DNA of 64,000 nt from Desulfobacteraceae bacterium (GTDB taxonomy: Bacteria; Desulfobacterota; Desulfobacteria; Desulfobacterales; JALSRD01), in assembly GCA_027061725.1 (NCBI GenBank), contig JAMOVG010000382.1, positions 15,644 through 79,643 on the forward strand, given 5' to 3'. The position numbers and the translations under genes were made by a program. The notes beneath the pieces are model-generated. The model searched no databases, was not told the origin of the DNA, and was given only the letters and a program-made list of their open reading frames with translations. This document shows positions 43,447 to 64,000 of this stretch, one piece after another (the stretch's first letter is position 1; every line of letters begins with the position of its first letter).

Positions 43447-43647
43447 ATGAGCAGAAACCGTTTGAAGGCTGTCAGAGAATCTCTTCTCATGAGCAAAGCA
43501 GAGCTGGCTCGCAAAGCAAACGTCTCTCCAATGACCATCGCCCGCATCGAAAAGGGAAAGCCCTGTCGGCTGGAAACCAAACGTAAAATCATTCTGGCTC
43601 TGGGGCTGAATCTTGCAGATAAAGATGAAATTTTCCAAGATGATTGA
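43447..43647 (+). CDS. XRE-family helix-turn-helix transcriptional regulator (short)
   Basis: MSRNRLKAVRESLLMSKAELARKANVSPMTIARIEKGKPCRLETKRKIILALGL is the classic Cro/C1-type HTH. I prefer ATG 43447 (66 aa) over the track start 43339. It ends 9 nt before pilM. Confidence 0.65.
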   Translation: MSRNRLKAVRESLLMSKAELARKANVSPMTIARIEKGKPCRLETKRKIILALGLNLADKDEIFQDD

Positions 43648-43656
43648 GAGATATTC

Positions 43657-44712
43657 ATGCTGTTTGCCAAGAAAAACCACTTAGTCGGACTCGACATCGG
43701 TTCCCGCACCATCAAAGTCGCAGAAATCACCGGGCTCAGCAAGGGCGGTGCCTTTAAGGCCTTCGGCCTCATCGACATCCCGCCCGGTCTCATCGAGGAC
43801 GGCACCATCAAGGAGCCGGAAAAGGTGGCCGAGTTCATCCGCGAACTGTTTTCCACCCACAAAATCAAGGAGCAGAACGTCGCCACCTCCATCGGCGGAT
43901 ACTCGGTGATCGTCAAGAAAATCGACGTACAGACCATCAGCGAAGAGCAGCTGCAGGAAAACATCCATCTCGAGGCCGAGCAGTACATCCCTTACGACAT
44001 TAACGATGTGTACTTGGATTTTCACATCATCGGGGAAAACGAGAACAACGCCAACCTGACCAGCGTGCTGCTCACGGCGGCCAAAAAGGAGATGGTGGAC
44101 GACTACGCAGGCGTCATTGACATGGCGGGGCTGAACCCCTGCGTGGTGGACGTGGACGCCTTCGCCCTGCAGAATATTTTCGAGTTCACTCAGGGCGGGG
44201 GTGATGAAAACATCGCCCTTATCGACATCGGCGCCTCCAAGACCTCGCTGAACATCCTCAAGAACAATCAGTCCCTCTTCATGCGGGATGTCTCGCTGGG
44301 ATGCGCCCAGATCAACCACAAGATCGCCTCCATGGCCGACTGCTCCGCTGAAGAGGCTGAAGAGATCAAACTGACCGGCAAATCCGACACCCTGTCCTCC
44401 GAACAGATCAAGGAAATCATCTCGACCATCGTGGCCGACTGGTGCCAGGAGATCCGGCGGGCGCTGGATTTCTTCTACTCCACCTACCCGGACGACCAGA
44501 TCAAGCGCATCGTGCTGAGCGGCGGCGGGGCCAACATCAAGGAGTTCAGGGAATTACTGGGCGTCGAAACCTCCGCCGAAGTGGAAGTGATCAACCCCTT
44601 CGCGCCTTTCAGGGCCGACAGCGGACGGCTCGACCCCGCCTATCTGTCACAGGTGGCTCCCCAGGCGGCCATTTGCATGGGGCTGGCTACACGAAGAATC
44701 GACGACAAATGA
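43657..44712 (+). CDS. pilM: Type IV pilus assembly protein PilM (actin-like ATPase fold)
   Basis: 351 aa. LVGLDIGSRTIKVAE, EAEQYIPYDINDVYLDF, ALIDIGASKTSLNI and VLSGGGANIKEF are typical PilM motifs. Confidence 0.9.
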   Translation: MLFAKKNHLVGLDIGSRTIKVAEITGLSKGGAFKAFGLIDIPPGLIEDGTIKEPEKVAEFIRELFSTHKIKEQNVATSIGGYSVIVKKIDVQTISEEQLQENIHLEAEQYIPYDINDVYLDFHIIGENENNANLTSVLLTAAKKEMVDDYAGVIDMAGLNPCVVDVDAFALQNIFEFTQGGGDENIALIDIGASKTSLNILKNNQSLFMRDVSLGCAQINHKIASMADCSAEEAEEIKLTGKSDTLSSEQIKEIISTIVADWCQEIRRALDFFYSTYPDDQIKRIVLSGGGANIKEFRELLGVETSAEVEVINPFAPFRADSGRLDPAYLSQVAPQAAICMGLATRRIDDK

Positions 44713-45317
44713 TACGAATCAACCTGTTACCATTCCGAGATGCTCGCAGAAAAGAGACCGCCCGCAAACAGGTGGGTATTTTCCTGTTGACCATGGCCGT
44801 GGTGCTGGGCCTTCTGCTGGTTGTCCACTTCTACCTGAAAAATCAGGAGAAAAGCCTGCAGACCCGGGTCAAATCCACCAAGGCCCAACTGGCCAAGTAC
44901 GAAAAGATCAACAAGGAAATCACCGCAATCAAAAAGAAGCTGGAGATTCTCAAGAAAAAGACCGACGTCATCAAGAGTTTGGAGGCCAACCGCCGCCAGG
45001 CGGTGGAACTGCTGGATGCCTTCACAAGGTTGGTGATCAAGAAGCGCATGTGGTTCACGCGACTGGAAAGCCACGGCTCACTGTCGGGTACCGTGCGAAT
45101 CCTCGGCATCGCTATGGACAACAAGACCGTGGCCGATTTCATGACACGGCTGGAAAAATCGGGTCTCTTCGCCAGTGTGCAGCTCAAGAACCTGCAAAAG
45201 CACACCATCAAGGAAAACCAGAGCATCGATCTGAAGAAATTTGAGATTGACTGTCAACGGATAGCCAAGAACCCGGTTCAGACGGACAAGAAGAAGAAGA
45301 AGGCCAAAAAGAAATGA
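44709..45317 (+). CDS. pilN: Type IV pilus assembly protein PilN, with Lys-rich C-terminal tail
   Basis: ATG 44709 overlaps the pilM stop. The product has MIRINLLPFRDARRKE, one TM, a coiled coil and a ferredoxin-like domain. It ends QTDKKKKKAKKK. Confidence 0.8.
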   Translation: MIRINLLPFRDARRKETARKQVGIFLLTMAVVLGLLLVVHFYLKNQEKSLQTRVKSTKAQLAKYEKINKEITAIKKKLEILKKKTDVIKSLEANRRQAVELLDAFTRLVIKKRMWFTRLESHGSLSGTVRILGIAMDNKTVADFMTRLEKSGLFASVQLKNLQKHTIKENQSIDLKKFEIDCQRIAKNPVQTDKKKKKAKKK

Positions 45318-45979
45318 AATCAGGCGCATCCGCAGATAAAACCGCACTGTTCGAAAGGATAGAGCAGCTTTCCAAAACCCAGAAGGTCCTGATTTACGTG
45401 GTCTGTATCCTGCTGGTGACAGCCGCGTTCGGATACTTCTCCTTCTACCGCTCGTGGCAGGCCGTCAACAGGCTGTCCAAGGAAGAGAAGCAGCTGCAGG
45501 AAAAACTGACCATCGCAAAGCGCAACGCGCGCCAGATCAAAGCCTATCGCGAGCGCATCGAACAGGCCAAGGCCCGCCTCAAGATGGCCATGCGGGCACT
45601 TCCCGAAAAGCAGGAGATCCCCTCGCTGCTGGCCGGCATCTCCCGGGCCGGGCAACGGGCCGGGCTGGAGTTCACGCTCTTTCAGCCCAAGGCGGAAATC
45701 CCCAAGGACTTCTACGCCGAACTCCCCCTGGCCATCAAGGTCACCGGCACCTATCACCAGGTAGCCACCTTCTTTGACAAGGTTTCCCGGCTGGACCGGA
45801 TCGTCAACATTCAGGACATCACCATGACACCGCTGCCGGATAAAGAACAGTCCGGACCTGACATTAAACTGATGACGGCCTGCACGGCGGTGACCTACAA
45901 GTTCATTGAGCAGTCCCAGCAGAAAAAATCCGGCAAGGACAAGAAGAGAAAGAAGAAGAAAAAGAACAAGAAAAAATAA
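45314..45979 (+). CDS. pilO: Type IV pilus assembly protein PilO, with Lys-rich C-terminal tail
   Basis: 221 aa. ATGA overlap with pilN. One TM, a coiled coil, and the PilO core (IPSLLAGISRAGQRAGLEFTLFQP...VTGTYHQVATFFDKVSRLDRIVNI). It ends KKSGKDKKRKKKKKNKKK. Confidence 0.8.
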   Translation: MKSGASADKTALFERIEQLSKTQKVLIYVVCILLVTAAFGYFSFYRSWQAVNRLSKEEKQLQEKLTIAKRNARQIKAYRERIEQAKARLKMAMRALPEKQEIPSLLAGISRAGQRAGLEFTLFQPKAEIPKDFYAELPLAIKVTGTYHQVATFFDKVSRLDRIVNIQDITMTPLPDKEQSGPDIKLMTACTAVTYKFIEQSQQKKSGKDKKRKKKKKNKKK

Positions 45980-45999
45980 CAGCAGAAACGGCACTGATT

Positions 46000-46611
46000 A
46001 TGTTCAAAGCGAACGCCACCCTGACCCGACTGGCCTGTGTTTTCTGTTTTGCGGCCTTTCTGACAGCCGGCTGCGACAGCGGCACCGAAAAACCCGTCCA
46101 GAAAACCGTCGTAGGACAGAAAATCATGACTTCCTCCAAGAAAAGTGCACCGGCAGCTAAGAAAGAGGCCGCTGCTCATGCGCAGCAGAAAACGACGGCG
46201 CCTGCCTCAGACACCCGTGTGGCCAGCATAAAGCCATACAGCCCTGCAGGCAAAACCGACCCGTTTGTCCCCCTGTTCCGCAAGTCGGAAACCGAAGACA
46301 CCCAGCCCACAGCTTCTCCCAAGAAGAAGCGCAGGAAGCACATCCCCCGCACGCCGCTGGAACGGGTCGACCTCAGCCAGCTGAAACTCACCGCCATCAT
46401 CCGTTCGCCCCAGGGCAACAAGGCATTGGTGGAAGAAGCCACCGGCAAGGGATACGTCGTCACGGTGGGCACCTACTTGGGCAACCAGGGCGGGAAAATC
46501 ACGAAAATACTTGACGATCGCATCATCGTCGAAGAAGAGATAGAACAGCCATTAGGGGGAATCAAAAAAGTACCACGCCAACTGAAACTTCAGAAATCTT
46601 CAGGGGAATGA
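46000..46611 (+). CDS. pilP: Type IV pilus assembly lipoprotein PilP
   Basis: 203 aa. Lipobox LTAGC. DPFVPLF motif. C-terminal beta-domain (LKLTAIIRSPQGNKALVEEATGKGYVVTVGTYLG). Confidence 0.75.
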   Translation: MFKANATLTRLACVFCFAAFLTAGCDSGTEKPVQKTVVGQKIMTSSKKSAPAAKKEAAAHAQQKTTAPASDTRVASIKPYSPAGKTDPFVPLFRKSETEDTQPTASPKKKRRKHIPRTPLERVDLSQLKLTAIIRSPQGNKALVEEATGKGYVVTVGTYLGNQGGKITKILDDRIIVEEEIEQPLGGIKKVPRQLKLQKSSGE

Positions 46612-46615
46612 CACC

Positions 46616-49600
46616 ATGGATGACAGGAAGTGGATGCGCTCCAGTGCTGCAGCTCTTGCAATGGCCCTGCTACTGACCGCTTTCTGGCTGGGAGGATGTG
46701 CCACCAGCCGCGGTGCGGGGCAAACTGCTGAAGTCCAGGCCGATGTTGCCGAAGCCGAAAGCCCGCCGGCGGAAGTGCCGGCCGACGGTAAAAACATTAC
46801 GACCATCCGGGCTGTGCCGCAACCGGACTCGGTGAAGGTACTCATCGAGGGAAACCAGAACCTGACGTACACGTCGATCAAGCAGGCCGTGCCGCTGCGC
46901 ATGGTGTTCTACTTTCCCGGCGCCGCGTTCGCCCCGGACCTCAAACCCGCCATTCCGGAAAACAGCGTTGTCGAGTCCGTCAAAGTGATCCCGGCGGACG
47001 AGGACAACGACACCCCACGGATTGAGCTCTTCCTGAAAAAGGACGTCCCCTGCGACGTCACAAGAGAAGAAGGGCGTGGCCTGAAACTGTCATTTCCCAC
47101 CGGCATGGCCATCGCAGAGAATCAGGATGAGCCGACCGCGAAGGCGGACATCGAGGAACAAAACCTGACGGAACCGACTGCTGACCAGGCGCAATCGTCC
47201 GACACTCCGTCTGCTGCGGCCGTGACCGCTGCAGACGAGCAGGAGACACCGGCGGCGGCCAACGAGTCCCCCGAGAAAGCCGTCCCCCCGCAGGATGCGC
47301 CGCCGGCCACACGGCTGGAATCGGTTTCCGCCCAGGCCGGGGATCAGGGCGTACAGGTGCTGCTGGCGGCCAACGGGGTCATCAACGAATACAGCACGTT
47401 CACGCTCAAATCTCCGCCAAGGATCGTTTACGACATCCCCAACCTGGAGAGCCCCTACCATCGTGAACAGCGTGTCACGGTGGACACGCCGTGGGTAAAG
47501 CGCGTGCGCTATTATGCGGACCCCTTCAAACTGCGGGTGGTGCTGGATACGGATGACGCTTACCTGGCGGCTTATAACGCCAAGCCAACGGGAAACGGCC
47601 TGGCCATCTCGGTGGGCCAACCTGCCCTGGCGTCCGTTGAAACGCCGGCCGAACCGCAACCTAAAGCCGCCGCACCCGAGCCGCAGTCCGGAACCGTAAC
47701 GGCCCAGGTGCAGCCTGCGGAAAGCGTCGTGGAGGCCCCAAAAGCCCCTGAGAAAAAAGCACCCCTGGTAGCCCAGGCGCAAAGCGCCAAAAAACCGGCG
47801 CCGGCGCCAGCCGCAGGGACCACCCGTGCCTGGCTCAACCGACTGGACTTCTCCAGCGAAGCCGGCGGAAAATCGACCGTGGTGATCGGCACCACGGCCC
47901 CGGTCAAGTACGATGTCGTCAAAGAAAACGACCGCCATATCGTGATCCGCCTCCAGAACACCAAAATCCCGGACTATCGCAAACGGCCACTGATCACCAC
48001 CCGCTTCGAGAGCGCGGTGGACCGCATCATCCCCATCCAGAGGCCGGACATGCGTGACCGGGCGCTGATTTCCATCGAACTGCGCGAGGGCGTCAAGTAC
48101 CGCACGGAAACGGAGGGCAACCGGATCCTGGTGCATTTCGAAGCGTCCTCGGTACCCCCCAAGCCTTTTGCCGAGGCCCAGCTTCCGCCCTGGGAGGAAG
48201 TGGCCAACGCCACCGTCGCCGCCATGGAGCAGAAGCAGGCGGCCGACCAGGCCATTCAGGCGGCCGGTGGCGCCGCCGCGCCCGGCCTGCAACAGGCGGC
48301 CGGCACCCCGGCATGGGACCGTGTGAAGCCCAAAAAATTCACCGGCGAAAAGATCGCCCTGGATTTCTATGAAACCGATATCAAGAACGTTTTCCGAATT
48401 CTGCAGGACGTCAGCGGAAAGAACTTTGCCATCGACCAGGATGTGACGGGCAAGGTCACCTTGAGCCTGCACAAACCCGTCCCCTGGGATCAGGTGCTGG
48501 ACCTGGTACTGAAAATGAACCAGCTGGCCATGGTCACCGAGGGCGATGTCATCCGCATCGGCACCCAGGCCAAATTCGAGGCCGAGGAAAGGGCCCGTCG
48601 CAAGCGCTGGGAGGAAGAACTCAAGCGCCAGAAGCTGGAAGTGCAGCTGGCCCAGGCCGTCACCGAGTACATTCCTATCAATTACGCCAACGCCAAAGAC
48701 ATCTACGATATGATTTCACGCGGCAGCGGAAGCACCGGCGGCAGCAGTCGTTCACAGATGGGCAGCGTGGTGGCCGAAGAGAGCGCCAGCGCCAATGCGC
48801 TGCTGACCCCCGGCGTGGGCAGCATCATGTTCGACGAACGCACCAACCAGGTCATCGTGACCGACCTGCCGCCCAAAATCGAGCAGATCAAGCGCATCAT
48901 CTCCCAGCTGGACCGCCCCACCCGGCAGGTCAGCATCGAAGCCCGCATCGTGGAGGCCAGCAGCAGCTTCGCCCGTGAGATCGGCGTGCAGTGGGGCGTC
49001 GAGGGCGGCATCTCCAGCACCGGCAACGAGCCTTACACGGCCAGCCGGCTTCCCGGATCCGGCACGGCCGCCGATCCCAACCAGCCCAGCTGGCTACGGG
49101 AGATGGGCGCTGAGGGCCAGCCGGGCGTCGGCCCCCAGCGCGGCTTCGACACCCTGGGCGGAACCTACGGCTGGGACAGCGCCGTCAACCTGCCCATCAA
49201 TGCAGCAGCCGGCGCAATCGGGTTCAACTTTCTGCGCATCGCCGGCACAGGGCTGGTCATCAATGCACGCCTGATGGCCTCGGAAACCACCGGGGAGAGC
49301 AAGATCATCTCGGCCCCCAAAATCGCGACGCTGGACAACGTCAAAGCGATCATCAAGTCGGGACTGCGCTACCCGTACAACAAGCTGGACGAATCGGGAA
49401 ACACGGTCACCGAATTCGAGGACATCGATCTGGTCCTGGAAGTCACGCCTCACGTAACACTGGACCAGCGCATTTCCATGAAACTGAAAATTACCAAGAA
49501 AGATCTCGGCGATGTCATCAACGGCCAACAGTCCTTCACCACCAAGGAAGCCGAGACTGTGCTGCTGGTCAACGACGGCGACACGGTGGTCATCGGCGGC

Positions 49601-49786
49601 ATCATCAAATCTTCCAAGGGGGCCAGCCAGACAGGGCTGCCTTTCCTGTCCAAGATTCCCATTCTGGGGTGGCTCTTCAAGACCGAGTCCAACGCCAAGC
49701 GCAAAGAGGAACTGCTCATCTTTATCACGCCCAGAATCGTGAACCTGGAAAAACGTGGAAGCGAGAAGGTGACGGTCTCCTCGTGA
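46616..49786 (+). CDS. pilQ: Type IV pilus secretin PilQ with lipobox and three AMIN-like domains
   Basis: 1056 aa. N-terminal WLGGCATS (lipoprotein signal). Three AMIN-like beta modules are separated by Ala/Pro/Glu/Gln-rich linkers. N0/N1 domains follow. The C-terminal secretin core includes GLPFLSKIPILGWLFK...LLIFITPRIV. Confidence 0.9.
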   Translation: MDDRKWMRSSAAALAMALLLTAFWLGGCATSRGAGQTAEVQADVAEAESPPAEVPADGKNITTIRAVPQPDSVKVLIEGNQNLTYTSIKQAVPLRMVFYFPGAAFAPDLKPAIPENSVVESVKVIPADEDNDTPRIELFLKKDVPCDVTREEGRGLKLSFPTGMAIAENQDEPTAKADIEEQNLTEPTADQAQSSDTPSAAAVTAADEQETPAAANESPEKAVPPQDAPPATRLESVSAQAGDQGVQVLLAANGVINEYSTFTLKSPPRIVYDIPNLESPYHREQRVTVDTPWVKRVRYYADPFKLRVVLDTDDAYLAAYNAKPTGNGLAISVGQPALASVETPAEPQPKAAAPEPQSGTVTAQVQPAESVVEAPKAPEKKAPLVAQAQSAKKPAPAPAAGTTRAWLNRLDFSSEAGGKSTVVIGTTAPVKYDVVKENDRHIVIRLQNTKIPDYRKRPLITTRFESAVDRIIPIQRPDMRDRALISIELREGVKYRTETEGNRILVHFEASSVPPKPFAEAQLPPWEEVANATVAAMEQKQAADQAIQAAGGAAAPGLQQAAGTPAWDRVKPKKFTGEKIALDFYETDIKNVFRILQDVSGKNFAIDQDVTGKVTLSLHKPVPWDQVLDLVLKMNQLAMVTEGDVIRIGTQAKFEAEERARRKRWEEELKRQKLEVQLAQAVTEYIPINYANAKDIYDMISRGSGSTGGSSRSQMGSVVAEESASANALLTPGVGSIMFDERTNQVIVTDLPPKIEQIKRIISQLDRPTRQVSIEARIVEASSSFAREIGVQWGVEGGISSTGNEPYTASRLPGSGTAADPNQPSWLREMGAEGQPGVGPQRGFDTLGGTYGWDSAVNLPINAAAGAIGFNFLRIAGTGLVINARLMASETTGESKIISAPKIATLDNVKAIIKSGLRYPYNKLDESGNTVTEFEDIDLVLEVTPHVTLDQRISMKLKITKKDLGDVINGQQSFTTKEAETVLLVNDGDTVVIGGIIKSSKGASQTGLPFLSKIPILGWLFKTESNAKRKEELLIFITPRIVNLEKRGSEKVTVSS

Positions 49787-49843
49787 CGCGGGGGATCCTG
49801 GAAAGCCATGAAACGCAAAACCCATGGAACTGAAAGGAAGTTT

Positions 49844-50677
49844 ATGAAATTCAAGAATCTGTCAACAACGATACTGGTGGTGGTGATCCTGTCGCTGATT
49901 GGCTACATGGCAGGCTGCGGTTCGAAGGGCGGCGTGGCCGACCCGCAGGCCGGTTACATCGAGCTGACGGCCACCCCGTCCTGTCTCAGGCCGCTGGAAC
50001 GCACGTCGTCGGTCATCGTGGCCACGGTGTACAAATCTGGCGGCGAGCCCGCCGACATCGGCACCCGCGTGACCTTCCGCATCTCGACGGGCATCGGTAC
50101 ATTCGCCAACGGCACCCGTGAGCTGACCACGCACACCACCGGTGCCAACGGTGTCGCTTCGGTGGTGGCCATCGCGGGCGATATCGAGGGCACCATGGCC
50201 GTCACCGCCGAGTCCAGCGGCATGAAACAGCGCGTGGATATTCCCATCGACGAAAACTGCGACCCGGACACCGGCTCCACCGACACCGAGACGGACACCA
50301 GCACCGCAACGGATACCAGTACCAGTACAGCCACAGACACGGATACGGGAACCGACACTGGCGCAACCACCAACGCCATGATTATGGTGGACGTGCCCAC
50401 CCAGGCCATGGCGGCCGACGGCAACTCCTCCGTCACCCTGACGGTCAGCGTAGCCGACAGCGAAGCGCATATCGTACCCATCGGTACCCCGGTGACCTTT
50501 TCCACCACCCTGGGCACCTTCGCCAACGGCCGGCAGACGTACAGCCTGCCCACCACCGACGAGAGCGGTACGGTTCAGGCGCAGTTGTTCGCCGGCACCA
50601 CCCCTGGAATGGCCGAGGTGACGGTTGCCGCCGAGGGCAGCTACCAGGTGATCCACGTCGCCATGGTCGCACCGTAG
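49844..50677 (+). CDS. Lipoprotein with two bacterial Ig-like (Big_1/invasin-type) domains joined by a Thr/Asp-rich linker
   Basis: The start was moved to ATG 49844, giving MKFKNLSTTILVVVILSLIGYMAGCGS (lipobox). Two repeats follow the pattern A(T/D)G.S...V.V...G.P...GT.VTF.T.LGTFANG...T...G.....(AE)VTV/A. The family call is by pattern only. Confidence 0.65.
   Translation: MKFKNLSTTILVVVILSLIGYMAGCGSKGGVADPQAGYIELTATPSCLRPLERTSSVIVATVYKSGGEPADIGTRVTFRISTGIGTFANGTRELTTHTTGANGVASVVAIAGDIEGTMAVTAESSGMKQRVDIPIDENCDPDTGSTDTETDTSTATDTSTSTATDTDTGTDTGATTNAMIMVDVPTQAMAADGNSSVTLTVSVADSEAHIVPIGTPVTFSTTLGTFANGRQTYSLPTTDESGTVQAQLFAGTTPGMAEVTVAAEGSYQVIHVAMVAP
50261..50371 (+). repeat. Low-complexity Thr/Asp-coding repeat (DPDTGSTDTETDTSTATDTSTSTATDTDTGTDTGATT)
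   Basis: Degenerate tandem ACC/ACG/GAC/GAT codon units, read directly. It forms the inter-domain linker of the lipoprotein. Confidence 0.8.
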
Positions 50678-50706
50678 CGAAAACCGCAGAGACCTTTCGT
50701 TCCGAT

Positions 50707-50734
50707 AAGAGGCCGTGGCAACACGGCCTCTTTT
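50707..50734 (+). terminator. Rho-independent terminator ending the pil/lipoprotein operon
   Basis: AAGAGGCCGTG-[GCAA]-CACGGCCTCTT gives an 11-bp perfect stem. It is followed by TTTG and lies 30 nt after the stop at 50677. Confidence 0.75.
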
Positions 50735-50780
50735 GCGTCGCCGCTTCGCGTATCGTACATCCACGCCCGCACAGTGCCCC

Positions 50781-50808
50781 TTGCAAAGCGGCACCAATGG
50801 GGTATAAT
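50781..50808 (+). promoter_or_regulatory. Near-consensus sigma-70 promoter for the gsp operon
   Basis: TTGCAA (50781-50786), a 16-nt spacer, then TATAAT (50803-50808), about 90 nt upstream of gspF ATG 50901. Confidence 0.55.
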
Positions 50809-50900
50809 CCGAGCATGCAGGCGAAATGCTCTTGCGGTTCCCTTTTCGGCGCGGCCGGGACGTGCCGCCGGTCTCCGGGAAACCGCCACGGATAACCGCC

Positions 50901-52255: not shown

Positions 52256-52711
52256 ATGCGAATCAGGAAACAACTGTTCCGAACCCATTGCGAGGGGTTC
52301 ACGCTGATCGAACTGATGGTGGTCATCGTCATTCTGGGTATTTTGGCTACGTTCATCGTCCCCCGCATAATGGGAGAGCCTGAAAAGGCCAAAAGAGTAA
52401 AAGCGCGCATCCAAATTGAAAGTCTGGAAACCGCGCTGAAATCCTATAAACTCGACAACGGATTCTACCCCACCACCGAGCAGGGGCTGCAGGCCCTGGT
52501 GGAAAAGCCCGAGTCGGCCCCCGTGCCCAAGAACTGGCGCAAGGGCGGCTACATCGAGAAGGGCAAAATCCCCAAGGATCCCTGGGGCAACGACTTCGTC
52601 TACTTGAGCCCCGGCGCCCACGGCGACTACGACATCATCTGCTACGGGGCCGACGGCGTACCGGGCGGCGAGGACAACAACAAGGACATCAACAGCTGGG
52701 AAGTCGAGTGA
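52256..52711 (+). CDS. gspG: Type II secretion major pseudopilin GspG
   Basis: The start was moved to ATG 52256 (RBS GGGAGG). Prepilin leader and cleavage site CEG|[17 protein letters not shown]. GspG core ([22 protein letters not shown]...[26 protein letters not shown]). Confidence 0.9.
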
Positions 52712-55488: not shown

Positions 55489-56946
55489 ATGGCCAAAAAA
55501 GTTCTCGGCTTGGATGTCAGCTCGGACGGAATCGGCGCCGTATTGCTCAAGCGCGGCGTCAAGACCCACGCGATTGAGGCCTGCGCCCACATCGCCCTGG
55601 CCCAGAACGCCCCTTTCGAGGAATCCCTGGCGGCCGCGCTTGAAAAGCTGTGCGCGCAGATGGACATCGGCGACGTCATCTGCTCCGCCTCCTTCCCGGC
55701 CGAACGCATCTCCTACCGCCATGTGGAAGTGCCCTTCAGGGCGGCGCGCAAGATCCGCCAGGTGTTGCCCTTCGAACTGGAACCCGGCCTGCCCTTCCCC
55801 GTGGAGGACACGGTGTGGGCCTACCAGGGACTGGGCGGCACCCGCCAGAACACCCTGCTGGCTGCGGCGGCCGTCAAGGCCGAGTTCGATGCCTACCTGG
55901 CCTGCCTGAAACATTTCGGCCTCGATCCGGCCTCCGTATCCCCGGCCGGCTATGCCCTGGCGCTGTTGACCGACGAACAGGCAAAAAAACAGGAGACCGG
56001 CGACGACCGGTGGATGCTGATCGACATCGGTCGTCAGGCGGCGACCGTTTTCCTTCTGGCCGGCGGCCTCATCCAGGCGGTGCGGCCGGTGGCCCGCAAA
56101 AGCGCCCACCCCTGGTCAGCGGCGGAAGTGGCCGCCACCATCCGTCGGACCCTGCATGCCTTTTCCGAACGCGTCCCCGGCGGCTATACTCCCGGGCAGA
56201 TTTTCATCACCGGCTACGACCTGCTGGACGTAAACCTGGAATCCGAGCTGGCGGGCCTGCTGTCCCTTCCGGTGAAACGCACCGACCTGTCGGGCAGCCT
56301 GCCGGTGAGCCTTGACGAGCGGGCGCTCGAAAACTGGCGCGCCCATCGCATGGACAAGGCCCTGGCCCTGGCGTATGCCGGCTTCGGGCTTTCCGGCCGC
56401 CAGCTGCTGGATTTCCGTGAGGGCTCTGCGCCGCGCATCCGTTTCTGGTCCCAGTACCGCCGGCAACTGGTCACGGCCGGGGTGCTGGCCCTGCTGGTGG
56501 TAGTCCTCATGGGCGCCGACCTGCTGTCGCAGACGCACGTCCTGGAGCGAAGACTGGAGATGCTCAACGCACGCATCACCGAAGTCTTCCGGTCGACTTT
56601 CCCGGAAGTCAAAAACATCGTCGACCCTCTGCAGCAGATGCGCGTCAAATTGCGTGAGATCGACCAGCGCATGCCCGAAGGAATCAGCACACGGCCGTCG
56701 GCCTTGGCGATCCTGGACGACATCAGCCGCAGCATCCCCAACAGCATCGACGTGGTGTTTTCGCGGCTGGTGATCACCGGTGACAACGTGCAGATCTCGG
56801 CCGAAACCGACACGTTCAACGCTGTGGACGAGATTAAGAACCGCCTGACGCAATCCGAATTGTTCGGCAAGGTGGACATTACGTCGGCCAACATGGACAA
56901 AACCAGCCGGCGTGTCCGCTTCAAACTCAAGCTGCACCTGGCCTGA
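55489..56946 (+). CDS. gspL: GspL-like assembly-platform protein (PilM-like cytoplasmic domain, one TM, PilN-like periplasmic domain)
   Basis: 485 aa. N-terminal actin-like start VLGLDVSSDGIGAVLL. A central TM (LVTAGVLALLVVVLMGA). A periplasmic ferredoxin-like C-terminus. Position after gspK. Confidence 0.7.
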   Translation: MAKKVLGLDVSSDGIGAVLLKRGVKTHAIEACAHIALAQNAPFEESLAAALEKLCAQMDIGDVICSASFPAERISYRHVEVPFRAARKIRQVLPFELEPGLPFPVEDTVWAYQGLGGTRQNTLLAAAAVKAEFDAYLACLKHFGLDPASVSPAGYALALLTDEQAKKQETGDDRWMLIDIGRQAATVFLLAGGLIQAVRPVARKSAHPWSAAEVAATIRRTLHAFSERVPGGYTPGQIFITGYDLLDVNLESELAGLLSLPVKRTDLSGSLPVSLDERALENWRAHRMDKALALAYAGFGLSGRQLLDFREGSAPRIRFWSQYRRQLVTAGVLALLVVVLMGADLLSQTHVLERRLEMLNARITEVFRSTFPEVKNIVDPLQQMRVKLREIDQRMPEGISTRPSALAILDDISRSIPNSIDVVFSRLVITGDNVQISAETDTFNAVDEIKNRLTQSELFGKVDITSANMDKTSRRVRFKLKLHLA

Positions 56947-57013
56947 TGAATTCTATGGACGGGCGGGAGATGGACAAGATGCACAAATCCGAAAGGCGAG
57001 GCCGGCGCCGGCC

Positions 57014-57544
57014 ATGAGAAACCTGACCCTCGGCAGACGCGAGAAGATCCTGGTCATCACGGCGGCCGTGCTGGTGACGCTTTTCGTGGTGACGCAGTTC
57101 GTGGTGGGCCCCCTGCTGGACAGGCGTCAGCGCCTGCGCGACAGTATCGCCTCCCAGAAAAAAAATCTGGCGGAAATCCTGGCGCTCAAGTCCGAGTACG
57201 AACGCCTGCGTCGCCAAGCGGACCAGGCCCGCGCGCGCCTCATGCACCGGGAAAAGGGATTCACCCTATTCTCCTTTCTTGAGGGGCTGGCAGGGCAGAC
57301 CGGCCTCAAGGAGAGCATCAGCTACATGAAGCCGGCGGTGAAGGAACACCGCCAGGGCGGCTTCAGGAGCGCCAGCGTGGAGATGAAGTTCAAATCCATC
57401 ACCCTGAAACAGCTGGCCGAATTCCTCAAACGGGTGGAGACCGCCAACAAGAGCATCTTCATCAAGCGCCTTTCGGTTACCCGCCAGGGGAAACGGCAGA
57501 AACGCATCGATGCCGTACTGCTGGTGGAGACCTACGTGCTTTGA
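57014..57544 (+). CDS. gspM: GspM-like bitopic protein
   Basis: The start was moved to ATG 57014. About 176 aa, with an N-terminal TM (ILVITAAVLVTLFVVTQFVV), a coiled coil and a small alpha/beta domain. Called by position and architecture. Confidence 0.6.
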   Translation: MRNLTLGRREKILVITAAVLVTLFVVTQFVVGPLLDRRQRLRDSIASQKKNLAEILALKSEYERLRRQADQARARLMHREKGFTLFSFLEGLAGQTGLKESISYMKPAVKEHRQGGFRSASVEMKFKSITLKQLAEFLKRVETANKSIFIKRLSVTRQGKRQKRIDAVLLVETYVL

Positions 57545-57663
57545 GCTTCCGGCAGGGAGGCGCTGACGGGGGAGGAACCGTTGGGCGCGGTTTGCGAAAA
57601 GCGCCGTAATATCATGAGCCTGCGTATTTTTTGGCTATCAGGAGAACAGCGTTGGCATCGAAG

Positions 57664-58518
57664 ATGAAAAATACACCGCCGTGGGTGCTCTACGTTCTCT
57701 ACTTCCTGGCCGTCACGGCGGTCTTGCTCTACATGCTGTTCCCCGCCGATACGGTAAAGCGCTACGTGGAGAGCCTGGGCAGCCGACTGGACCCGGCCCT
57801 GCAAACCACCGTCGATCGGGTGCGCCCCGCGTTTCCCGCCAGCGTGCGCCTTTCCGGCATCCGGCTGCGCTACAACCGCCGGCTGCTGTTCGGGGCGGAC
57901 CGGGCCACAGTGTCCCCGCGGCTGATGGCGTATCTTGCGGGCAAAAGGGGCTACACGCTGCGCTGTGAAACTTACGGCGGAAGGATCACGGCCCGGTTGG
58001 AAATCGCATCCGACCAGCCGGCCGGACGCATTCGCATCGACGCCCTGGACCTGTCGAAGATCCCGCTACTGCAGGGACTCGGCCGCCTGAAACCGGCCGG
58101 ACGCCTTGACCTCGCCGTTGATTTTCGGACCACCGACGGGGTGCTGACGGGCAAGGGAGGTTTCCATGTAAGGGATTTAAAAGTTCACCTCGAAGAAATG
58201 GTCCCGGCCGCAGCCGAACTGTCCTTCGCCAGCGTGGACGGCAAGCTCCGTCTGGAGGGAAAACAGCTGACCATCACCGGCGGCCGCGCCAAGGGGCGCC
58301 AGGCCGACGCCGCCATCCAGGGGTCGCTCAACGTGACGGCGCCTTTCACGGAAAGCGGCCTGGACCTGTCGCTGACGCTCCGCCCCCACGCGGAGTTCAT
58401 CGCCGCACTGCGCAAGGATCCATCCCTGCGGTGGTTGTCGGCCGGCATGGCGGGCAGCCGGGGATTGCCCCTGCGCATCTTCGGCACCATCGAGAAACCG
58501 CAGGTAGCGGTGCAGTAA
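57664..58518 (+). CDS. gspN: GspN-like protein
   Basis: The start was moved to ATG 57664. An N-terminal TM (PPWVLYVLYFLAVTAVLLYMLF) is followed by a beta-rich periplasmic domain. The size and position match GspN. Confidence 0.6.
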   Translation: MKNTPPWVLYVLYFLAVTAVLLYMLFPADTVKRYVESLGSRLDPALQTTVDRVRPAFPASVRLSGIRLRYNRRLLFGADRATVSPRLMAYLAGKRGYTLRCETYGGRITARLEIASDQPAGRIRIDALDLSKIPLLQGLGRLKPAGRLDLAVDFRTTDGVLTGKGGFHVRDLKVHLEEMVPAAAELSFASVDGKLRLEGKQLTITGGRAKGRQADAAIQGSLNVTAPFTESGLDLSLTLRPHAEFIAALRKDPSLRWLSAGMAGSRGLPLRIFGTIEKPQVAVQ

Positions 58519-58534
58519 CCGGATCACAGCGCCT

Positions 58535-59401
58535 ATGAAACGTCTGTTCGTCATCGTCAACCTGATCCTGCTGACGGCCGCGTCCTACTACGCCGTCCGG
58601 ATTTTCTATCGCTTGTCCATGGCCGACCTGGTGGTGGAGACCCTGCCCGTTACGCCCGCGTCCGCCGCGGCGGTTCAGAAAACCCGGCAACCCCATCCGG
58701 TGGCGGACATCCGTGCGATCGTAGAGCGCAACCTCTTCAAGACCGACACGCAGGTGGCCTCGACGCCGGCAGCGGAAAAACCGGTGGACGTGGAAGAGCT
58801 GCAACCGACAAAACTCAACCTGAAACTGTGGGGCACGGTGGCCTCGCCGGGAGGCCGATCCTTCGCCGTTATCGAGGATGTCAAGAACCGGCGCCAGCGC
58901 CTGATCCGCGAAAATGACCGCATCGAAAACGCCACGGTCAAGAAAATCCTGCGGGGACGCGTCATCCTGTCGGTCGACGGGCGCGACGAAGTGCTGGAGA
59001 TGGAGAAGATCCGCACCGCCTCACGCCGGGGGCCGCGCCTGCCCTCCCGCGCACAACGCGGCGAAGGCGAGGAACCGCCCGAAGAACACGTGCGCGTCCA
59101 GCAGAGCGAGATCGAGAGCGCCGTCAGAAACGTCAACCAGCTGATGAAGCAGGTGCGTATCCGACCCCACTTCACCAACGGCAGGGCCGACGGACTGCGG
59201 CTGACCGGAATCCGCTCGGGATCCATCTTCAGCCGCATGGGGCTGCGCAGCGGCGACATCCTGGTGGGCGTGGACGGCGAACGCATCCAGTCGGTGGACG
59301 ACGCCCTCAAGTTCTATCGGAGTCTTAAGTCCGCCACCAATGTCAAGCTGACCGTCAAACGCGGCGGACGAGAAAAAACCATCGATTATCAGGTGGAATA
59401 G
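58535..59401 (+). CDS. gspC: GspC with C-terminal PDZ domain
   Basis: 288 aa. N-terminal TM (LFVIVNLILLTAASYYAV). An HR-like domain (LKLWGTVASPGGRSFAVIEDVKNRRQRLIRENDRI). PDZ domain (GLRLTGIRSGSIFSRMGLRSGDILVGVDGERI). Confidence 0.72.
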   Translation: MKRLFVIVNLILLTAASYYAVRIFYRLSMADLVVETLPVTPASAAAVQKTRQPHPVADIRAIVERNLFKTDTQVASTPAAEKPVDVEELQPTKLNLKLWGTVASPGGRSFAVIEDVKNRRQRLIRENDRIENATVKKILRGRVILSVDGRDEVLEMEKIRTASRRGPRLPSRAQRGEGEEPPEEHVRVQQSEIESAVRNVNQLMKQVRIRPHFTNGRADGLRLTGIRSGSIFSRMGLRSGDILVGVDGERIQSVDDALKFYRSLKSATNVKLTVKRGGREKTIDYQVE

Positions 59402-59427
59402 TGCTACTTTACACTGCTTGCAGAAAA

Positions 59428-61536
59428 ATGAATCCGGCAAACGACGACATAGGCGGCCTGCGGGCCCCCGCTTGGATCCTGTGGCTGATGGTGTGGGCGA
59501 CGCTCTGCCTGGCGCCGTCCGCAACCTGCGCACAGAGCGCCCGGAAAACGGCGGCCGACTCCGCCGCCCGTTTCGTTACCATCGATTTCAACGATGTGGA
59601 CATCGGGGTCTTCATCAAGTTCATCAGCGAGCTGACCGGCAAGAATTTTGTCATCGACCGCCGCGTGCGTGGCAAGGTGACCGTTATTTCGCCCTCCCGC
59701 ATATCGGTGCAGGAAGCCTACCGCGTGTTCGAATCGGTGCTCGAGGTGCACGGCTACACCACGGTCAGGGCCGGAAAGGTCATCAAGATCGTGCCGGCCC
59801 CCGACGCCCGCACCAAAAACATCGAGACCCTGCTGCGCGAAGAGCACGGCCGCGCCGAAGACAAGGTCGTCACCCAGCTGATCCAGCTGAAATACGCCGA
59901 CGCCACCGAGATCCGCCGCCTGTTCACGCCGCTGATCTCCAAGAGCAGCGTCATGCTGGCCTACCCGCCCACCAACACCGTCATCGTCACCGACGTCTAC
60001 TCCAACATCAAGCGCCTGCTCAAGATCCTGAAGGCCGTCGACGTGCCCGGCATGGGCCAGGAACTGACGGTCATGCCCCTGAAGTACGCCGATGCCGCCG
60101 ATCTGGTCAAAATCCTGCAGACCGTTTTCCGCACCCGGCGCAAGCCCAAAAAGGGCGAGCCGTCCGCGGTGGCACGCTTTGTGGCCGACGAACGCACCGG
60201 CAGCATCATTCTGCTGGCCAGCGAAATCGAGACCAAGAAGATCAAGAACCTGATCCAGATGCTCGACAAGGAGGCGCCCAAGGGCAGCGAGCGCGTGCGG
60301 GTCTACTACCTGGAAAACGCCTCGGCCGAAGAACTGGTCAAAGTGCTCCAGGAGATGCCCAAAAAGAAAACCACCGCCAAGAAGGGCAAAACACAGCCCT
60401 CGGCCATCTCCGAAGACGTCAAGATCACGGCCGACAAGGCCACCAACAGCCTGATCATCACCGCCAAAAAGGAGGACTACGCCGTCCTCGAGGAAATCAT
60501 CCGCAAATTGGACATCCCGCGGGCCATGGTCTACATCGAGGCGCTGATCATGGAGGTCAACGTCACCAAGGACTTTCGCCTGGGCACCGAGTGGGTGCTC
60601 GGCGACCAGGTCAACGTACGCGGCCGCAAGGCCATCGCGGGGGGCGGTTTTTCAGGTGGATCTCTGGGGGCGCTGCCCGGCGACGACGGCTACCAGGGCC
60701 TGGCGCCCGGCGATGGGGCCAAGATCCCCCTGCCGCCCGGCTTCAGCATGGGCATCTTCGGGCCGGCTCTGAAAATCGGGAACCTCGTCTTTCCCAACAT
60801 CTCGGCCATCGTGCAGGCCTACCAGAAAGACCGTGACGTCAACATCCTGTCCACCCCCCAGATCCTGACCACCGACAACCAGGAGGCCAGCATCATGGTG
60901 GGCAAGAACATCCCCTTCCAGACCAAGTCCACCACCACCAACAACGAGACATTCAGCTCCTTCGAGTACCGCGACGTGGGCAAAATGCTCAAGGTGACCC
61001 CCATCATCAGCAAGGACAACATGGTGCGCCTGAATATCTCGCTGGAGGTCACGGCGCTGGAGTCCACCACCGACTTCCGGCCCACCACGCTCAAGCGCAA
61101 CATCAACACCACGGTCATCGTGCGCGACGGCGGCACCGTGGTGCTCGGTGGCCTGATCGAGGACCTGGGCGTCACGGCGGACTACAAGCTGCCGTGCCTG
61201 GGAAGCGTGCCGCTCATCGGCTGGCTTTTCCGCTCACGGGCCAACGCAGGCGAAAAATCCAATCTCTACATCTTTCTCACGCCCCACGTGATCAACAATC
61301 CCAAGGACGCCCTGCACGTTTACGAGAAGAAACGCGGGTACATCGACCGTATCAAGAGCGGGCACATCAAGATGTACGAAAGGGGGCTGAAGAGCAACCC
61401 GCCGACCGGCGAGCCTTCCCGGGGCCAGGGAATTTCTCCCGGTGAGGCCGTGAAAAAACCGATTCAGCCCCAGAGCGGTGGGATCGACAATCCGGCCGGC
61501 AGCGGGGTGCCGCCAACGAAATCCGGCAGCTTCTGA
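59428..61536 (+). CDS. gspD: Type II secretion system secretin GspD
   Basis: I prefer ATG 59428; the track uses GTG 59401. N0 domain (FVTIDFNDVDIGVFIKFISELTGKNFVID), N1-N3 repeats, and secretin core (LPCLGSVPLIGWLFRSRANAGEKSNLYIFLTPHVI). The C-terminal tail is Pro/Gly-rich. Confidence 0.9.
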   Translation: MNPANDDIGGLRAPAWILWLMVWATLCLAPSATCAQSARKTAADSAARFVTIDFNDVDIGVFIKFISELTGKNFVIDRRVRGKVTVISPSRISVQEAYRVFESVLEVHGYTTVRAGKVIKIVPAPDARTKNIETLLREEHGRAEDKVVTQLIQLKYADATEIRRLFTPLISKSSVMLAYPPTNTVIVTDVYSNIKRLLKILKAVDVPGMGQELTVMPLKYADAADLVKILQTVFRTRRKPKKGEPSAVARFVADERTGSIILLASEIETKKIKNLIQMLDKEAPKGSERVRVYYLENASAEELVKVLQEMPKKKTTAKKGKTQPSAISEDVKITADKATNSLIITAKKEDYAVLEEIIRKLDIPRAMVYIEALIMEVNVTKDFRLGTEWVLGDQVNVRGRKAIAGGGFSGGSLGALPGDDGYQGLAPGDGAKIPLPPGFSMGIFGPALKIGNLVFPNISAIVQAYQKDRDVNILSTPQILTTDNQEASIMVGKNIPFQTKSTTTNNETFSSFEYRDVGKMLKVTPIISKDNMVRLNISLEVTALESTTDFRPTTLKRNINTTVIVRDGGTVVLGGLIEDLGVTADYKLPCLGSVPLIGWLFRSRANAGEKSNLYIFLTPHVINNPKDALHVYEKKRGYIDRIKSGHIKMYERGLKSNPPTGEPSRGQGISPGEAVKKPIQPQSGGIDNPAGSGVPPTKSGSF

Positions 61537-61563
61537 CGACGGCTGCCGCGGGGACGTTTGCCA

Positions 61564-63339
61564 ATGGCCGAACAGGAAACCACCACCAGCGCCGCCTCCC
61601 TCGAAGAGCTGCTGACCGAACGGTTCGGGTTGTCGGAGGAGGCGCTCTCCGAGGCGCGCCGCATCCAGTCCGAAAAGGGCGGCAGCCTGGGAGACATCCT
61701 GGTGCGCCGCAAGGCGCTCAGCGAGGTCCAGCTGCAGGAGGCGCGCAGCGCCCTCTACGGCCTGCCCTTCTGGCGGACCCTGCCGCTGGAGCGGCTCAAG
61801 GGAGACTTCACCGAGAAAGTGCCCATCGGCTACCTCAAGCGTTACCTGGTGGTGCCGCTGGAAATGCCCCCCGATGAGCCGACGGGCGAGGGCCCGGCAG
61901 CGCCGGGCGGTGAGGGCGGCAACAGCCGGGGTGCAGGCGTCGTGCTGGCCATCAACGATCCGTCCCGCTTTCCCATGGTCGACGACCTGGCCCGGCTGCT
62001 GGAACTGGAACACTGGGAAGTGGTACTCGCCACCCGCAACGCCATCCTGGATGCCGTCAACATGGCCTACGACCTGACCCGCGACTCGGCCGAACAGCTG
62101 GTCCAGGACATGGAAGAGGACGGCAGCGACATCCTCGACGAGATCGAGGAATCGGCCGACCTGCTGGACGACACCAGCGACGCGCCCATCATTAAACTAG
62201 TCAACCACATCATATCGCAGTCCGTCAAGGCGCGTGCCAGCGACATCCACATCGAACCCTACCAGGACAGCTTCAAGGTGCGCTACCGGGTGGACGGCAT
62301 CCTCTACGATCTGCTCACGCCGCCCAAGTGGATCCAACCGGCCCTGACGTCGCGCATCAAGGTCATGGCCAAGCTCAACATTGCCGAAAAGCGCCTGCCC
62401 CAGGACGGCCGCATCAACGTCAAGATCGGCGACCAGGAGGTCGACATCCGGGTGTCCACCATCCCGACTTCCTTCGGCGAGCGGGTTGTGCTGCGGCTGC
62501 TCAACAAGTCCGGCGCCCTTTTCCAGCTCTCCGACCTTGGGCTGGTGCCGGAACAGCGCCGGCAACTCGAGGCCCTGATCAAGTCACCCAACGGCATTTT
62601 CCTTGTGACCGGCCCCACGGGCAGCGGCAAGACCACTACGCTCTACGCCATCCTGTCCTCCATCAACAAACCGGACATCAACATCATCACGGTCGAAGAC
62701 CCGGTGGAGTACCAGATCAAGGGCATCAGCCAGATCCAGGTCAACCCCAAGATCGACCTGACCTTCGCCCGCGGCCTGCGCTCCATCGTGCGCCAGGACC
62801 CCGACGTCATCCTGATCGGCGAAATCCGCGACCGCGAGACAGCCGACATCGCGGTGCAGTCGGCGCTGACCGGGCACCTGGTCTTCTCCACGCTGCACAC
62901 CAACGACTCGGCCAGTGCCATCACGCGCCTGGTGGACATCGGCGTGGAACCTTTCCTGATCTCCTCGTCGGTACTTGCGGTGGCGGCCCAGCGCCTGGTG
63001 CGCCGGCTGTGTGACGCGTGCAAGGAGCCTTTCAAACCCAGCGACGCGGTCCTGAAAACGGCCGGCATCTCCCCGCAGGACCTTACGGACGGACGCCTGT
63101 ACCGCGCCAAGGGGTGCCCCAAGTGCTTCAACACCGGCTACCGCGGGCGGGTGGGGATCTTCGAGATCATGGTGATGGACGATGCCCTGCGCAACCTCAT
63201 CCTGGAAACATACGACTCCAACCGCATCAAGGCCGAGGCCCTGCGCCAGGGCATGACCACCCTGCGCCAGGACGGCATCGCCAAGGTCATCGCCGGGATT
63301 TCCACCATCGAGGAAATCCTGAGGGTCACGCGGGTATGA
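61564..63339 (+). CDS. gspE: Type II secretion ATPase GspE
   Basis: I prefer ATG 61564; the track uses TTG 61558. Walker A GPTGSGKTTT, Asp box, Walker B DPDVILIGEIRD, His box. The tetracysteine motif CDACKE...CPKC is present. Confidence 0.93.
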   Translation: MAEQETTTSAASLEELLTERFGLSEEALSEARRIQSEKGGSLGDILVRRKALSEVQLQEARSALYGLPFWRTLPLERLKGDFTEKVPIGYLKRYLVVPLEMPPDEPTGEGPAAPGGEGGNSRGAGVVLAINDPSRFPMVDDLARLLELEHWEVVLATRNAILDAVNMAYDLTRDSAEQLVQDMEEDGSDILDEIEESADLLDDTSDAPIIKLVNHIISQSVKARASDIHIEPYQDSFKVRYRVDGILYDLLTPPKWIQPALTSRIKVMAKLNIAEKRLPQDGRINVKIGDQEVDIRVSTIPTSFGERVVLRLLNKSGALFQLSDLGLVPEQRRQLEALIKSPNGIFLVTGPTGSGKTTTLYAILSSINKPDINIITVEDPVEYQIKGISQIQVNPKIDLTFARGLRSIVRQDPDVILIGEIRDRETADIAVQSALTGHLVFSTLHTNDSASAITRLVDIGVEPFLISSSVLAVAAQRLVRRLCDACKEPFKPSDAVLKTAGISPQDLTDGRLYRAKGCPKCFNTGYRGRVGIFEIMVMDDALRNLILETYDSNRIKAEALRQGMTTLRQDGIAKVIAGISTIEEILRVTRV

Positions 63340-64000
63340 CGCGGCGCAGACGACTGCCGGCCATGGGCGGTAACGTCCTCCTGGCAGCAGCTCTGATCCT
63401 CACGGTGCTGTGCCGCGGCGCCATGGCCGGCGACATCCTGGTCATCGACGCCGATCGGCAGTTCGCCTTTGCCGAATCCCTTTTCGAACGGCACGAGTTT
63501 TCCCAGGCGGCCGCCGAATACGAGCGCTTCGTGCACTTTTTCCCCGACGACCAGCGGGTTCCGCTGGCCGCTTTCAAGATCGGGCAGTCCTACTTCGAGG
63601 GGCAGCGCTGGCAGGACGCCATCCGCCAACTGGGGACCTTTGCCGAGCGCTTCAGGGGCTCTCCGCTGGCGGCCCGGGCGCGTCTGCTGATGAGCCGCTG
63701 CTACCTGCGGCTGGGCGACGAGCGCAGCGCCCTGGCGGTGCTGTCACGCCTGACGGCGCAGCCGGAAAACCCGGCCGTGGCCGACGAGGCCTGGTACCGC
63801 ACGGGGTGGATTTACCTGGAAAACCTGGACTGGGAAAACGCCCGCAGGGCCTTCGGCCACATCGACACCGCCCGCGCCGACGCCTATCACCTGCCGGCGC
63901 TCTACGCCGGGTTGGACACGGCCGGGCAGCTGCCCGCCAAAGACCCCCGCGTGGCCGGGCTGCTGGCCGTGGTGCCCGGGGCGGGTTTCGCCTACTGCGG
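63336..64000 (+). CDS. Secreted or membrane TPR-repeat protein (partial, runs off the right edge)
   Basis: Not in the ORF track because it has no stop in the window. ATG 63336 overlaps the gspE stop (ATGA). My translation begins MTRRRRLPAMGGNVLLAAALILTVLCRGAMAG. TPR-like units follow (FAFAESLFERHEFSQAAAEYERFV, AAFKIGQSYFEGQRWQDAI, EAWYRTGWIYLENLDWENARRAF). Confidence 0.6.
   Translation, partial: MTRRRRLPAMGGNVLLAAALILTVLCRGAMAGDILVIDADRQFAFAESLFERHEFSQAAAEYERFVHFFPDDQRVPLAAFKIGQSYFEGQRWQDAIRQLGTFAERFRGSPLAARARLLMSRCYLRLGDERSALAVLSRLTAQPENPAVADEAWYRTGWIYLENLDWENARRAFGHIDTARADAYHLPALYAGLDTAGQLPAKDPRVAGLLAVVPGAGFAYC

Follow-up and report, generated by a model that had tools for sequence, protein, structure and literature searches.

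A stretch of DNA from a Desulfobacterales metagenome-assembled genome (MAG), 64 kb long and referred to here as the window, carries at positions 43447-64000 two envelope machineries side by side: the pilMNOPQ genes of the type IVa pilus (T4aP) and a gsp operon for a type II secretion system (T2SS). The question raised by this locus is whether these are two standard machines that merely happen to be neighbours, or whether a single set of ATPase, platform and pseudopilins serves two secretins, both options having been put forward in an initial, sequence-only reading of the window. The evidence favours the first option: very probably, these are two independent standard machines of the type IV filament superfamily, adjacent as separate transcription units, since the adjacency is not conserved outside one clade and the units are separated by a terminator and a promoter. 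Combining the list of open reading frames (ORFs) with Pfam and NCBIfam profiles, we identified 20 genes in two blocks across the locus, all on the plus strand, including every gene named in the sequence-only reading, essentially where it had been placed. PilM, PilQ, GspF, GspG, GspL, GspN, GspC, GspD and GspE score above the curated NCBIfam cut-offs, which are the cut-offs meant throughout. A 109-kb ENA contig (ERZ27262658:k141_188816) carries identical sequence and was used for gene calls and for flanks beyond the window.

The boundary between the two blocks is marked by two signals. Following the pil unit, a hairpin at 50707-50735 (tail included) combines a perfect stem of 11 bp with a GCAA loop and a UUUUG tail, and folds at -24.7 kcal/mol (z = -4.2), in agreement with the strong terminator initially proposed; a consensus terminator scan missed it solely because its T-run is of 4 rather than 5. 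It is followed at 50781-50808 by a sigma-70-like promoter (TTGCAA-16-TATAAT, 10/12), which is the top match between 44 and 64 kb. Both elements are identical in the close relative L004. In the relative L085 the spacer is different (386 bp), with a GC-rich hairpin after the lipoprotein gene that closes the pil unit and TTGCCA...TATAAT before gspF. On the strength of the hairpin and promoter, we read the pil and gsp blocks as separate transcription units. An Rfam scan of the whole window returned no matches (no rRNA, tRNA, riboswitch or sRNA).

To place the locus among its relatives, a GspF scan over one genome per GTDB species gave 80 loci, nearly all from MAGs labelled Desulfobacterales, Desulfobacteraceae or 'delta proteobacterium', with GspF identities of 96% in one locus, 88% in one, 70% in one and 58-65% in the rest. 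The full arrangement, from a histidine kinase/response regulator pair through an XRE-family gene, pilMNOPQ and a lipoprotein gene to gspF, is present in L004 (GspF 96%) and likewise in contigs L085 and L089 (PilM 74%, TPR 49%). In these relatives the flanks are syntenic over about 10 kb on each side, with glutamate-synthase-like, SMC-like, radical SAM, SH3 and TPR_21 genes upstream, and amidohydrolase and PNP_UDP genes downstream. Two other close relatives, L005 and L006, are cut at gspF and thus uninformative on this point. For 46 other loci the sequence extends 5 kb or more upstream of gspF (9 kb or more in 34 of them), and in none of these did tblastn give any match to PilM, PilN, PilO or PilP there; the 'PilQ' matches in these loci were cross-matches on GspD only. 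What lies upstream of gspF outside the clade is a CDF cation-efflux gene in 17 loci and, as judged by eye, alcohol dehydrogenase-like and dihydrofolate reductase-like genes, among others. Wide conservation of the adjacency, which the sequence-only reading had named as the point to check in relatives, therefore fails: it is confined to one small clade.

The pil genes, for their part, are found without gsp genes beside them. In L087 (PilM 68%, on a 1.1-Mb contig), XRE-pilMNOPQ is followed by convergent unrelated genes, and neither the lipoprotein gene nor any gsp gene is present there. The protein database holds very many PilM orthologues at 66-71% identity, so that the pilMNOPQ operon considered here is the ordinary Desulfobacterales version. 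A metagenome scan with PilQ for pilQ neighbourhoods returned one contig of 4.5 kb. Taken together, the side-by-side placement is most likely a neutral rearrangement specific to one small clade and not a functional fusion.

The gene order of the gsp unit, F-G-H-I-J-K-L-M-N-C-D-E, had been described as circularly permuted. The order is real, but it is not peculiar to this locus: 79 of the 80 Desulfobacterales loci are colinear with it as far as the DNA reaches. The F to G junction was seen in 73 loci, N to C in 33, C to D in 33 and D to E in 19, the last count being limited by the flank of the fetched loci, which reaches 10 kb; two further contigs (L090 and L091) show J-K-L-M-N-C-D-E. Exceptions are minor, namely a gspC-like gene between F and G in L018 and a direct passage from M to E in L079. 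F...N-C-D-E is thus the standard Desulfobacterales order, and the xps order of Xanthomonas, E-F-G-H-I-J-K-L-M-N(C)-D (PMC7777525), provides a precedent for C and D behind M, the place of gspE being the only difference.

The statement that no pilin, pilus ATPase or peptidase is encoded in the window was borne out by a six-frame motif scan and Pfam. Over the 64 kb, the motif scan detected class-III signal peptides only in GspG, GspH, GspI and GspJ, and only one GspE-type Walker A motif, that of GspE itself. Motif scan, Pfam and gene calls gave no PilB, PilT, PilC, PilA or PilD in the window or in the flanks of the longer contig, and no prepilin peptidase (GspO/PilD) was found in the 64-kb window or 10 kb downstream; the Pfam scans covered most other large ORFs of the window, complemented by the gene calls on the matching contig. 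The T2SS is accordingly 'complete' in one sense only: all parts F to N, C, D and E are present, but GspO is missing from the window.

Such gaps have ample precedent. T4aP genes usually occupy multiple loci, and models of these systems count gspO as a 'loner' interchangeable with pilD (PMC6668835). Of the T4aP genes, pilMNOPQ alone forms a cluster in most of 66 outgroup genomes; with the exception of Myxococcales, Bdellovibrionales and Desulfuromonadales, the deltaproteobacterial orders, Desulfobacterales among them, have their T4aP genes apart, and the trees of the same study contain PilA and PilT homologues from Desulfobacterales (PMC6060248). The T2SSs of Xanthomonas and Pseudomonas have no peptidase of their own and use PilD (PMC7777525). 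Each feature that had been flagged as odd is therefore standard, whether pilMNOPQ on its own, a T2SS lacking a peptidase, the pair of secretins or the pair of PilM/N/O-like platforms.

The relationships between the two gene sets and the selection acting on them point in the same direction. Identity is 27% between PilQ and GspD in the secretin core and 22% between PilM and the N-domain of GspL; judged from their sequences, both pairs are ancient, deep paralogues bearing no sign of convergence. All pil and gsp genes compared have ratios of nonsynonymous to synonymous substitutions (dN/dS) of 0.04-0.36 relative to L004, at an unsaturated dS of 0.2-0.5. For pilMNOPQ, dN/dS is 0.07-0.12 relative to L004 and 0.12-0.30 relative to L085, which matches the low values of the gsp genes, with a saturated dS of about 1 or more in the comparison with L085. 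The five pilMNOPQ genes are intact in every lineage seen. Purifying selection on both pil and gsp genes indicates that both units are maintained, and we infer that the two machines are functionally independent.

How do the alternatives fare? Functional coupling would have one GspE/GspF/GspG-K set serving both secretins, with PilMNOPQ as a second conduit and alignment complex and no need for a separate PilB, PilC or pilin. It would account for the single ATPase, the single platform protein and the lack of a T4a pilin in the window and 10 kb beyond, and both the retention of the adjacency in three or more lineages of the clade and the purifying selection on pilMNOPQ would sit well with it. We nevertheless regard it as very unlikely, because PilM orthologues at 66-71% identity abound and the one relative of this kind that we examined (L087) has no gsp genes beside it, because no gsp operon with readable upstream sequence adjoins pilMNOPQ outside the clade, and because stand-alone pilMNOPQ operons are the norm (PMC6060248). 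The sharing of ATPase, platform and pseudopilins finds no support in the proteins either: at 22-27% identity they form two deeply paralogous sets that show no sign of convergence, GspE scores as a GspE and not as a PilB, and GspL/M already provide the PilM/N/O function for the T2SS, while a terminator and a promoter part the units. Equally improbable is a link restricted to the clade, whether GspE and GspF drive filaments through both PilQ and GspD or the two units form one regulon via read-through past the weak 4-U terminator. That pilMNOPQ might be a decaying remnant beside a working T2SS, in a lineage that has lost its pilus system, would agree with the lack of other pilus genes in the 64-kb window or 10 kb beyond; with five genes intact in every lineage and the low dN/dS values given above for both L004 and L085, we consider this extremely unlikely.

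Somewhat less improbable, though still unlikely, is a co-regulated envelope island, in which the machines would be mechanically independent and their adjacency selected through common local regulators, that is, the XRE protein and the divergent histidine kinase with its sigma-54 regulator. The XRE gene and the kinase/regulator pair are indeed conserved beside pilM, similar genes lie upstream of gspF in L078 (a pair) and in L034 and L043 (the regulator alone), and the adjacency has been retained at saturated dS. Yet a search for sigma-54 promoters (TGGCAC-N5-TTGCW, at most 2 mismatches) found none in the pil and gsp intergenic regions, and the 28 matches in the whole window fall below the 36.7 expected by chance; the gsp unit comes with a sigma-70-like promoter of its own; and synteny in the clade extends to the whole neighbourhood, so that conservation of this particular junction is not special.

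Three points weigh against two independent neighbouring machines, the reading that we prefer. The persistence of the adjacency at saturated dS (about 1 or more relative to L085) is compatible with weak selection for co-location, even though the surrounding genes are equally conserved. With a tail of 4 U only, some read-through from pilQ into gspF may occur. Finally, the location of pilA, pilB, pilC, pilT, pilD and a prepilin peptidase elsewhere in the genome is presumed from relatives and the literature.

The pil unit is preceded by a pair of divergent genes on the minus strand (40210-43062) that the sequence-only reading had not included. They encode a sigma-54-dependent, NtrC-type response regulator (40210-41592; Response_reg, Sigma54_activat and HTH_8), whose NtrC/AtoC-class NCBIfam matches all fall under the equivalog cut-offs, and its paired sensor histidine kinase (41647-43062; HisKA and HATPase_c), divergent from XRE-pilM and with AtoS/ZraS-class matches likewise under the cut-offs. 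The response-regulator homologue or the pair is also found upstream of pilM in the relatives L085 and L087. An identity as PilS/PilR was considered and rejected, the matches being only generic (AtoS/AtoC, NtrC-class) and below equivalog cut-offs, with no pilin gene downstream. A role of the sigma-54 regulator in pil or gsp control is something that we only infer.

The pil operon itself is headed by a small XRE-family helix-turn-helix regulator (43447-43647; HTH_3, E 6e-9). The gene had been recognized before; its extent is corrected here to about 66 aa, from the in-frame ATG at 43447, and a 65-aa orthologue lies directly upstream of pilM in L085, L086 and L087. It is followed by PilM, the cytoplasmic actin-like alignment protein (43657-44712; PilM_2 E 3e-76; TIGR01175 268 bits, cut-off 133), whose best 120 database homologues are 64-97% identical and, where they carry a source name, are called PilM. 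PilN (44709-45317; PilN Pfam match; 202 aa on the identical ENA contig) begins with MIRINLLPFR, which includes the INLLP motif that binds PilM. PilO (45314-45979; PilO Pfam, E 2e-45) and the lipoprotein PilP (46000-46611; PilP Pfam, E 1e-18; lipobox LTAGC) precede the 1056-aa secretin PilQ (46616-49786; three AMIN domains, N0, Secretin_N and Secretin; TIGR02515 371 bits, cut-off 284). Pfam, NCBIfam, the INLLP motif and the lipobox thus identify a PilM-PilN-PilO-PilP subcomplex with an AMIN-bearing PilQ, a combination that counts among the marks of a T4aP machine. The signal sequence of PilQ (46616-46720) ends in a lipobox-like FWLGGC, a motif that GspD does not have, which suggests a lipidated 'liposecretin' that may need no pilotin.

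The last gene of the unit encodes a 277-aa Big/invasin-D3-like lipoprotein (49844-50677; Invasin_D3 E 1e-8; lipobox YMAGC) with no NCBIfam match. It follows pilQ only in the clade of the window (L004 and L085), is absent from that position in L087, and evolves fast (47% amino acid identity and dN/dS of 0.54 relative to L085). In base composition, the stretch from the histidine kinase gene through XRE and pilMNO (42000-46000) has a GC content of 53-55%, versus 61-65% in the gsp operon, and a strongly positive AT skew (0.2-0.27) runs from pilM to pilQ; this contrast between pil and gsp may reflect a different history or codon usage of the two units.

The gsp unit opens with the inner-membrane platform protein GspF (50826-52127; two T2SSF domains; TIGR02120 456 bits, cut-off 424). 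The major pseudopilin GspG (52256-52711; N_methyl and T2SSG, E 4e-44 for the latter; TIGR01710 186 bits, cut-off 89) was rightly identified in the sequence-only reading, with its start now corrected to the ATG at 52256. It is followed by four minor pseudopilins, for which the equivalog models score below cut-off: GspH (52716-53228; N_methyl; best NCBIfam match gspH), GspI (53221-53637; N_methyl; gspI/XpsI matches), GspJ (53634-54335; N_methyl and T2SSJ) and GspK (54332-55408; T2SSK_1st E 3e-11; NF037980 124.6 bits, just under the cut-off of 130). The cleavage motif is G/FTLIE in GspG and GspH, G/FTFLE in GspI and G/FTLVE in GspJ (the slash marking the cleavage site), and GspK has its usual variant of the class-III signal peptide lacking Glu5. 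GspL (55489-56946; T2SSL, GspL_C, PilN and PilM_2; TIGR01709 92.6 bits, cut-off 65) fuses a PilM-like N-domain to a PilN-like C-domain. GspM (57014-57544) matches T2SSM at 33.3 bits (cut-off 27.8) and NF040576 below cut-off. GspN (57664-58518) is of the Leptospira/delta type, having no Pfam match and scoring 127 bits with TIGR04411 (T2SS_GspN_Lepto, cut-off 50).

The three remaining components are GspC with a PDZ domain (58535-59401; T2SSC and PDZ; NF041515 GspC_delta 193.5 bits, cut-off 150), the secretin GspD (59428-61536; N0, three Secretin_N and Secretin domains; TIGR02517 533 bits, cut-off 351) and the ATPase GspE (61564-63339; T2SSE E 2e-145; TIGR02533 672 bits, cut-off 630). GspE reaches only 603 bits in the comparison with PilB, for which the cut-off is 676. 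The domain plan of GspD, the pair of GspE and GspF, the pseudopilins G-K, GspC and GspL/M are together those of a T2SS, whose predicted function in this uncultured organism is the export of folded periplasmic proteins. The N-terminal region of GspE (61564-62100) has an MshEN Pfam match at residues 128-175 and, at residues 15-60, a sub-threshold MshE-type motif for binding cyclic di-GMP (NF053729, 30.5 bits, cut-off 38), so that the T2SS ATPase might be responsive to this messenger. An AAA_22 protein (ExeA/GspA-like, bearing an AAA domain at its N-terminus and a membrane segment at its C-terminus) is encoded upstream of the T2SS in 8 Desulfobacterales genomes, about 5-6 kb upstream of gspF in L042 and 7 other loci, and is not present in the window.

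Behind gspE lies a gene for a TPR protein of 313 aa (63336-64000, cut by the window end and complete on the ENA contig; TPR_6/TPR_16), whose start at 63336 overlaps the gspE stop at 63339, as had been noticed, an overlap that belongs to the clade of the window. On the ENA contig it is followed by convergent amidohydrolase genes, which indicates that the cluster ends there. This protein of about 310 aa has weak YbgF/BamD-like matches and trails the T2SS operon in several Desulfobacterales: a homologue comes right after gspE in L089 (10001-10948), and after an intervening yidD in L090 (9589-11035) and L091 (9626-10936), whereas in L088 (CP070660.1; 9727-10927) it follows yidD away from any gsp gene. 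By analogy with the TPR pilotins PilF, PilW and Tgl it might aid secretin assembly, or its position might be mere conserved synteny with yidD. We do not assign it as a dedicated T2SS part or pilotin, since yidD intervenes in two of four lineages and a fifth carries it away from gsp.

These assignments suggest how each machine would work. The first unit (XRE-pilMNOPQ-lipoprotein) would make the T4aP alignment subcomplex and its outer-membrane secretin, with cytoplasmic PilM clamping the INLLP N-terminus of PilN, PilN and PilO spanning the inner membrane, the lipoprotein PilP connecting PilN/PilO to the N0 domain of PilQ, and the three AMIN domains of PilQ fixing it to peptidoglycan. The genes for pilins, PilB, PilC, PilT and PilD would lie at other sites in the genome, which is the situation in most bacteria. 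The second unit (gspFGHIJKLMNCDE) would form a self-sufficient T2SS, in which GspE would drive a GspG pseudopilus, with GspH-K at its tip, built on the GspF/L/M platform; GspC would join this platform to GspD, through which folded periplasmic proteins would exit. For their processing, the five prepilin-type Gsp subunits would depend on a peptidase from another locus, probably the PilD of the pilus.

The remaining genes of the window are housekeeping and signalling genes only. They encode an ABC transporter, DsbA, a methyltransferase, an FGGY-family sugar kinase (glycerol kinase-like), a permease, an H-NOX/hybrid kinase/HD-GYP module, YchF, a glutamine amidotransferase (PurF-like), CarB, and SMC-like and radical-SAM proteins. 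The H-NOX module occupies a low-GC patch (15122-19865; 51-52% versus about 63-65% around it) encoding a haem-NO-binding H-NOX protein, a hybrid histidine kinase that combines PAS, receiver and Hpt domains, and an HD-GYP protein bearing a receiver; it looks like a signalling module leading from NO to cyclic di-GMP, possibly acquired horizontally. Elsewhere in the window, two ORFs of about 472 aa overlap on opposite strands (7629-9050 minus and 7650-9068 plus), neither with a Pfam match, and a 324-aa ORF (10309-11283, minus) has no Pfam match either.

As two independent neighbours, these genes add one more example of two well-understood envelope machines, and in that respect the locus matters little. 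Two comparative points nonetheless emerge, namely that F-G-H-I-J-K-L-M-N-C-D-E is the T2SS order of Desulfobacterales as a group, with yidD and a TPR gene often coming next, and that one uncultured clade has brought a pilMNOPQ operon beside a T2SS operon. Were the pil genes and the T2SS truly linked, they would represent a natural intermediate stage from pilus to secretion system, and a motor common to both machines would make the locus a rare surviving intermediate from the diversification of type IV filament systems; nothing that we have seen points there.

Among known systems, the closest parallels are found in gammaproteobacteria and in the deltaproteobacterial orders themselves. The gsp unit resembles the Xps system of Xanthomonas in its component set, in having the GspC-type and secretin genes at the end of the operon after gspM, and in the lack of gspO from the cluster, the pseudopilins of Xps being processed by PilD of the type IV pilus cluster (PMC7777525). 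It differs in that gspE comes last (F...N-C-D-E) rather than first, in its Leptospira/delta-type GspN (TIGR04411), and in its host, a member of the Desulfobacterales and not a gammaproteobacterium. In Pseudomonas aeruginosa, as here, pilMNOPQ is a stand-alone operon, separate in that species from pilABCD and pilTU, as is well established (PMC6668835, PMC7777525). There too, each machine has its own secretin and its own PilM/N/O-like platform (XcpY/Z in the Xcp system), and the prepilin peptidase PilD/XcpA is common to the pilus and the Xcp T2SS. The P. aeruginosa loci are, however, far apart, whereas here they lie 150 bp from each other, in one clade; the PilQ described here further stands out by its three AMIN domains and lipobox-like N-terminus, and the operon by the XRE gene at its head. 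As in the T4aP organization reported for the deltaproteobacterial orders that include Desulfobacterales, pilMNOPQ is the sole clustered T4aP block (PMC6060248). That survey reported no T2SS operon beside pilQ, an adjacency that is limited here to one uncultured clade.

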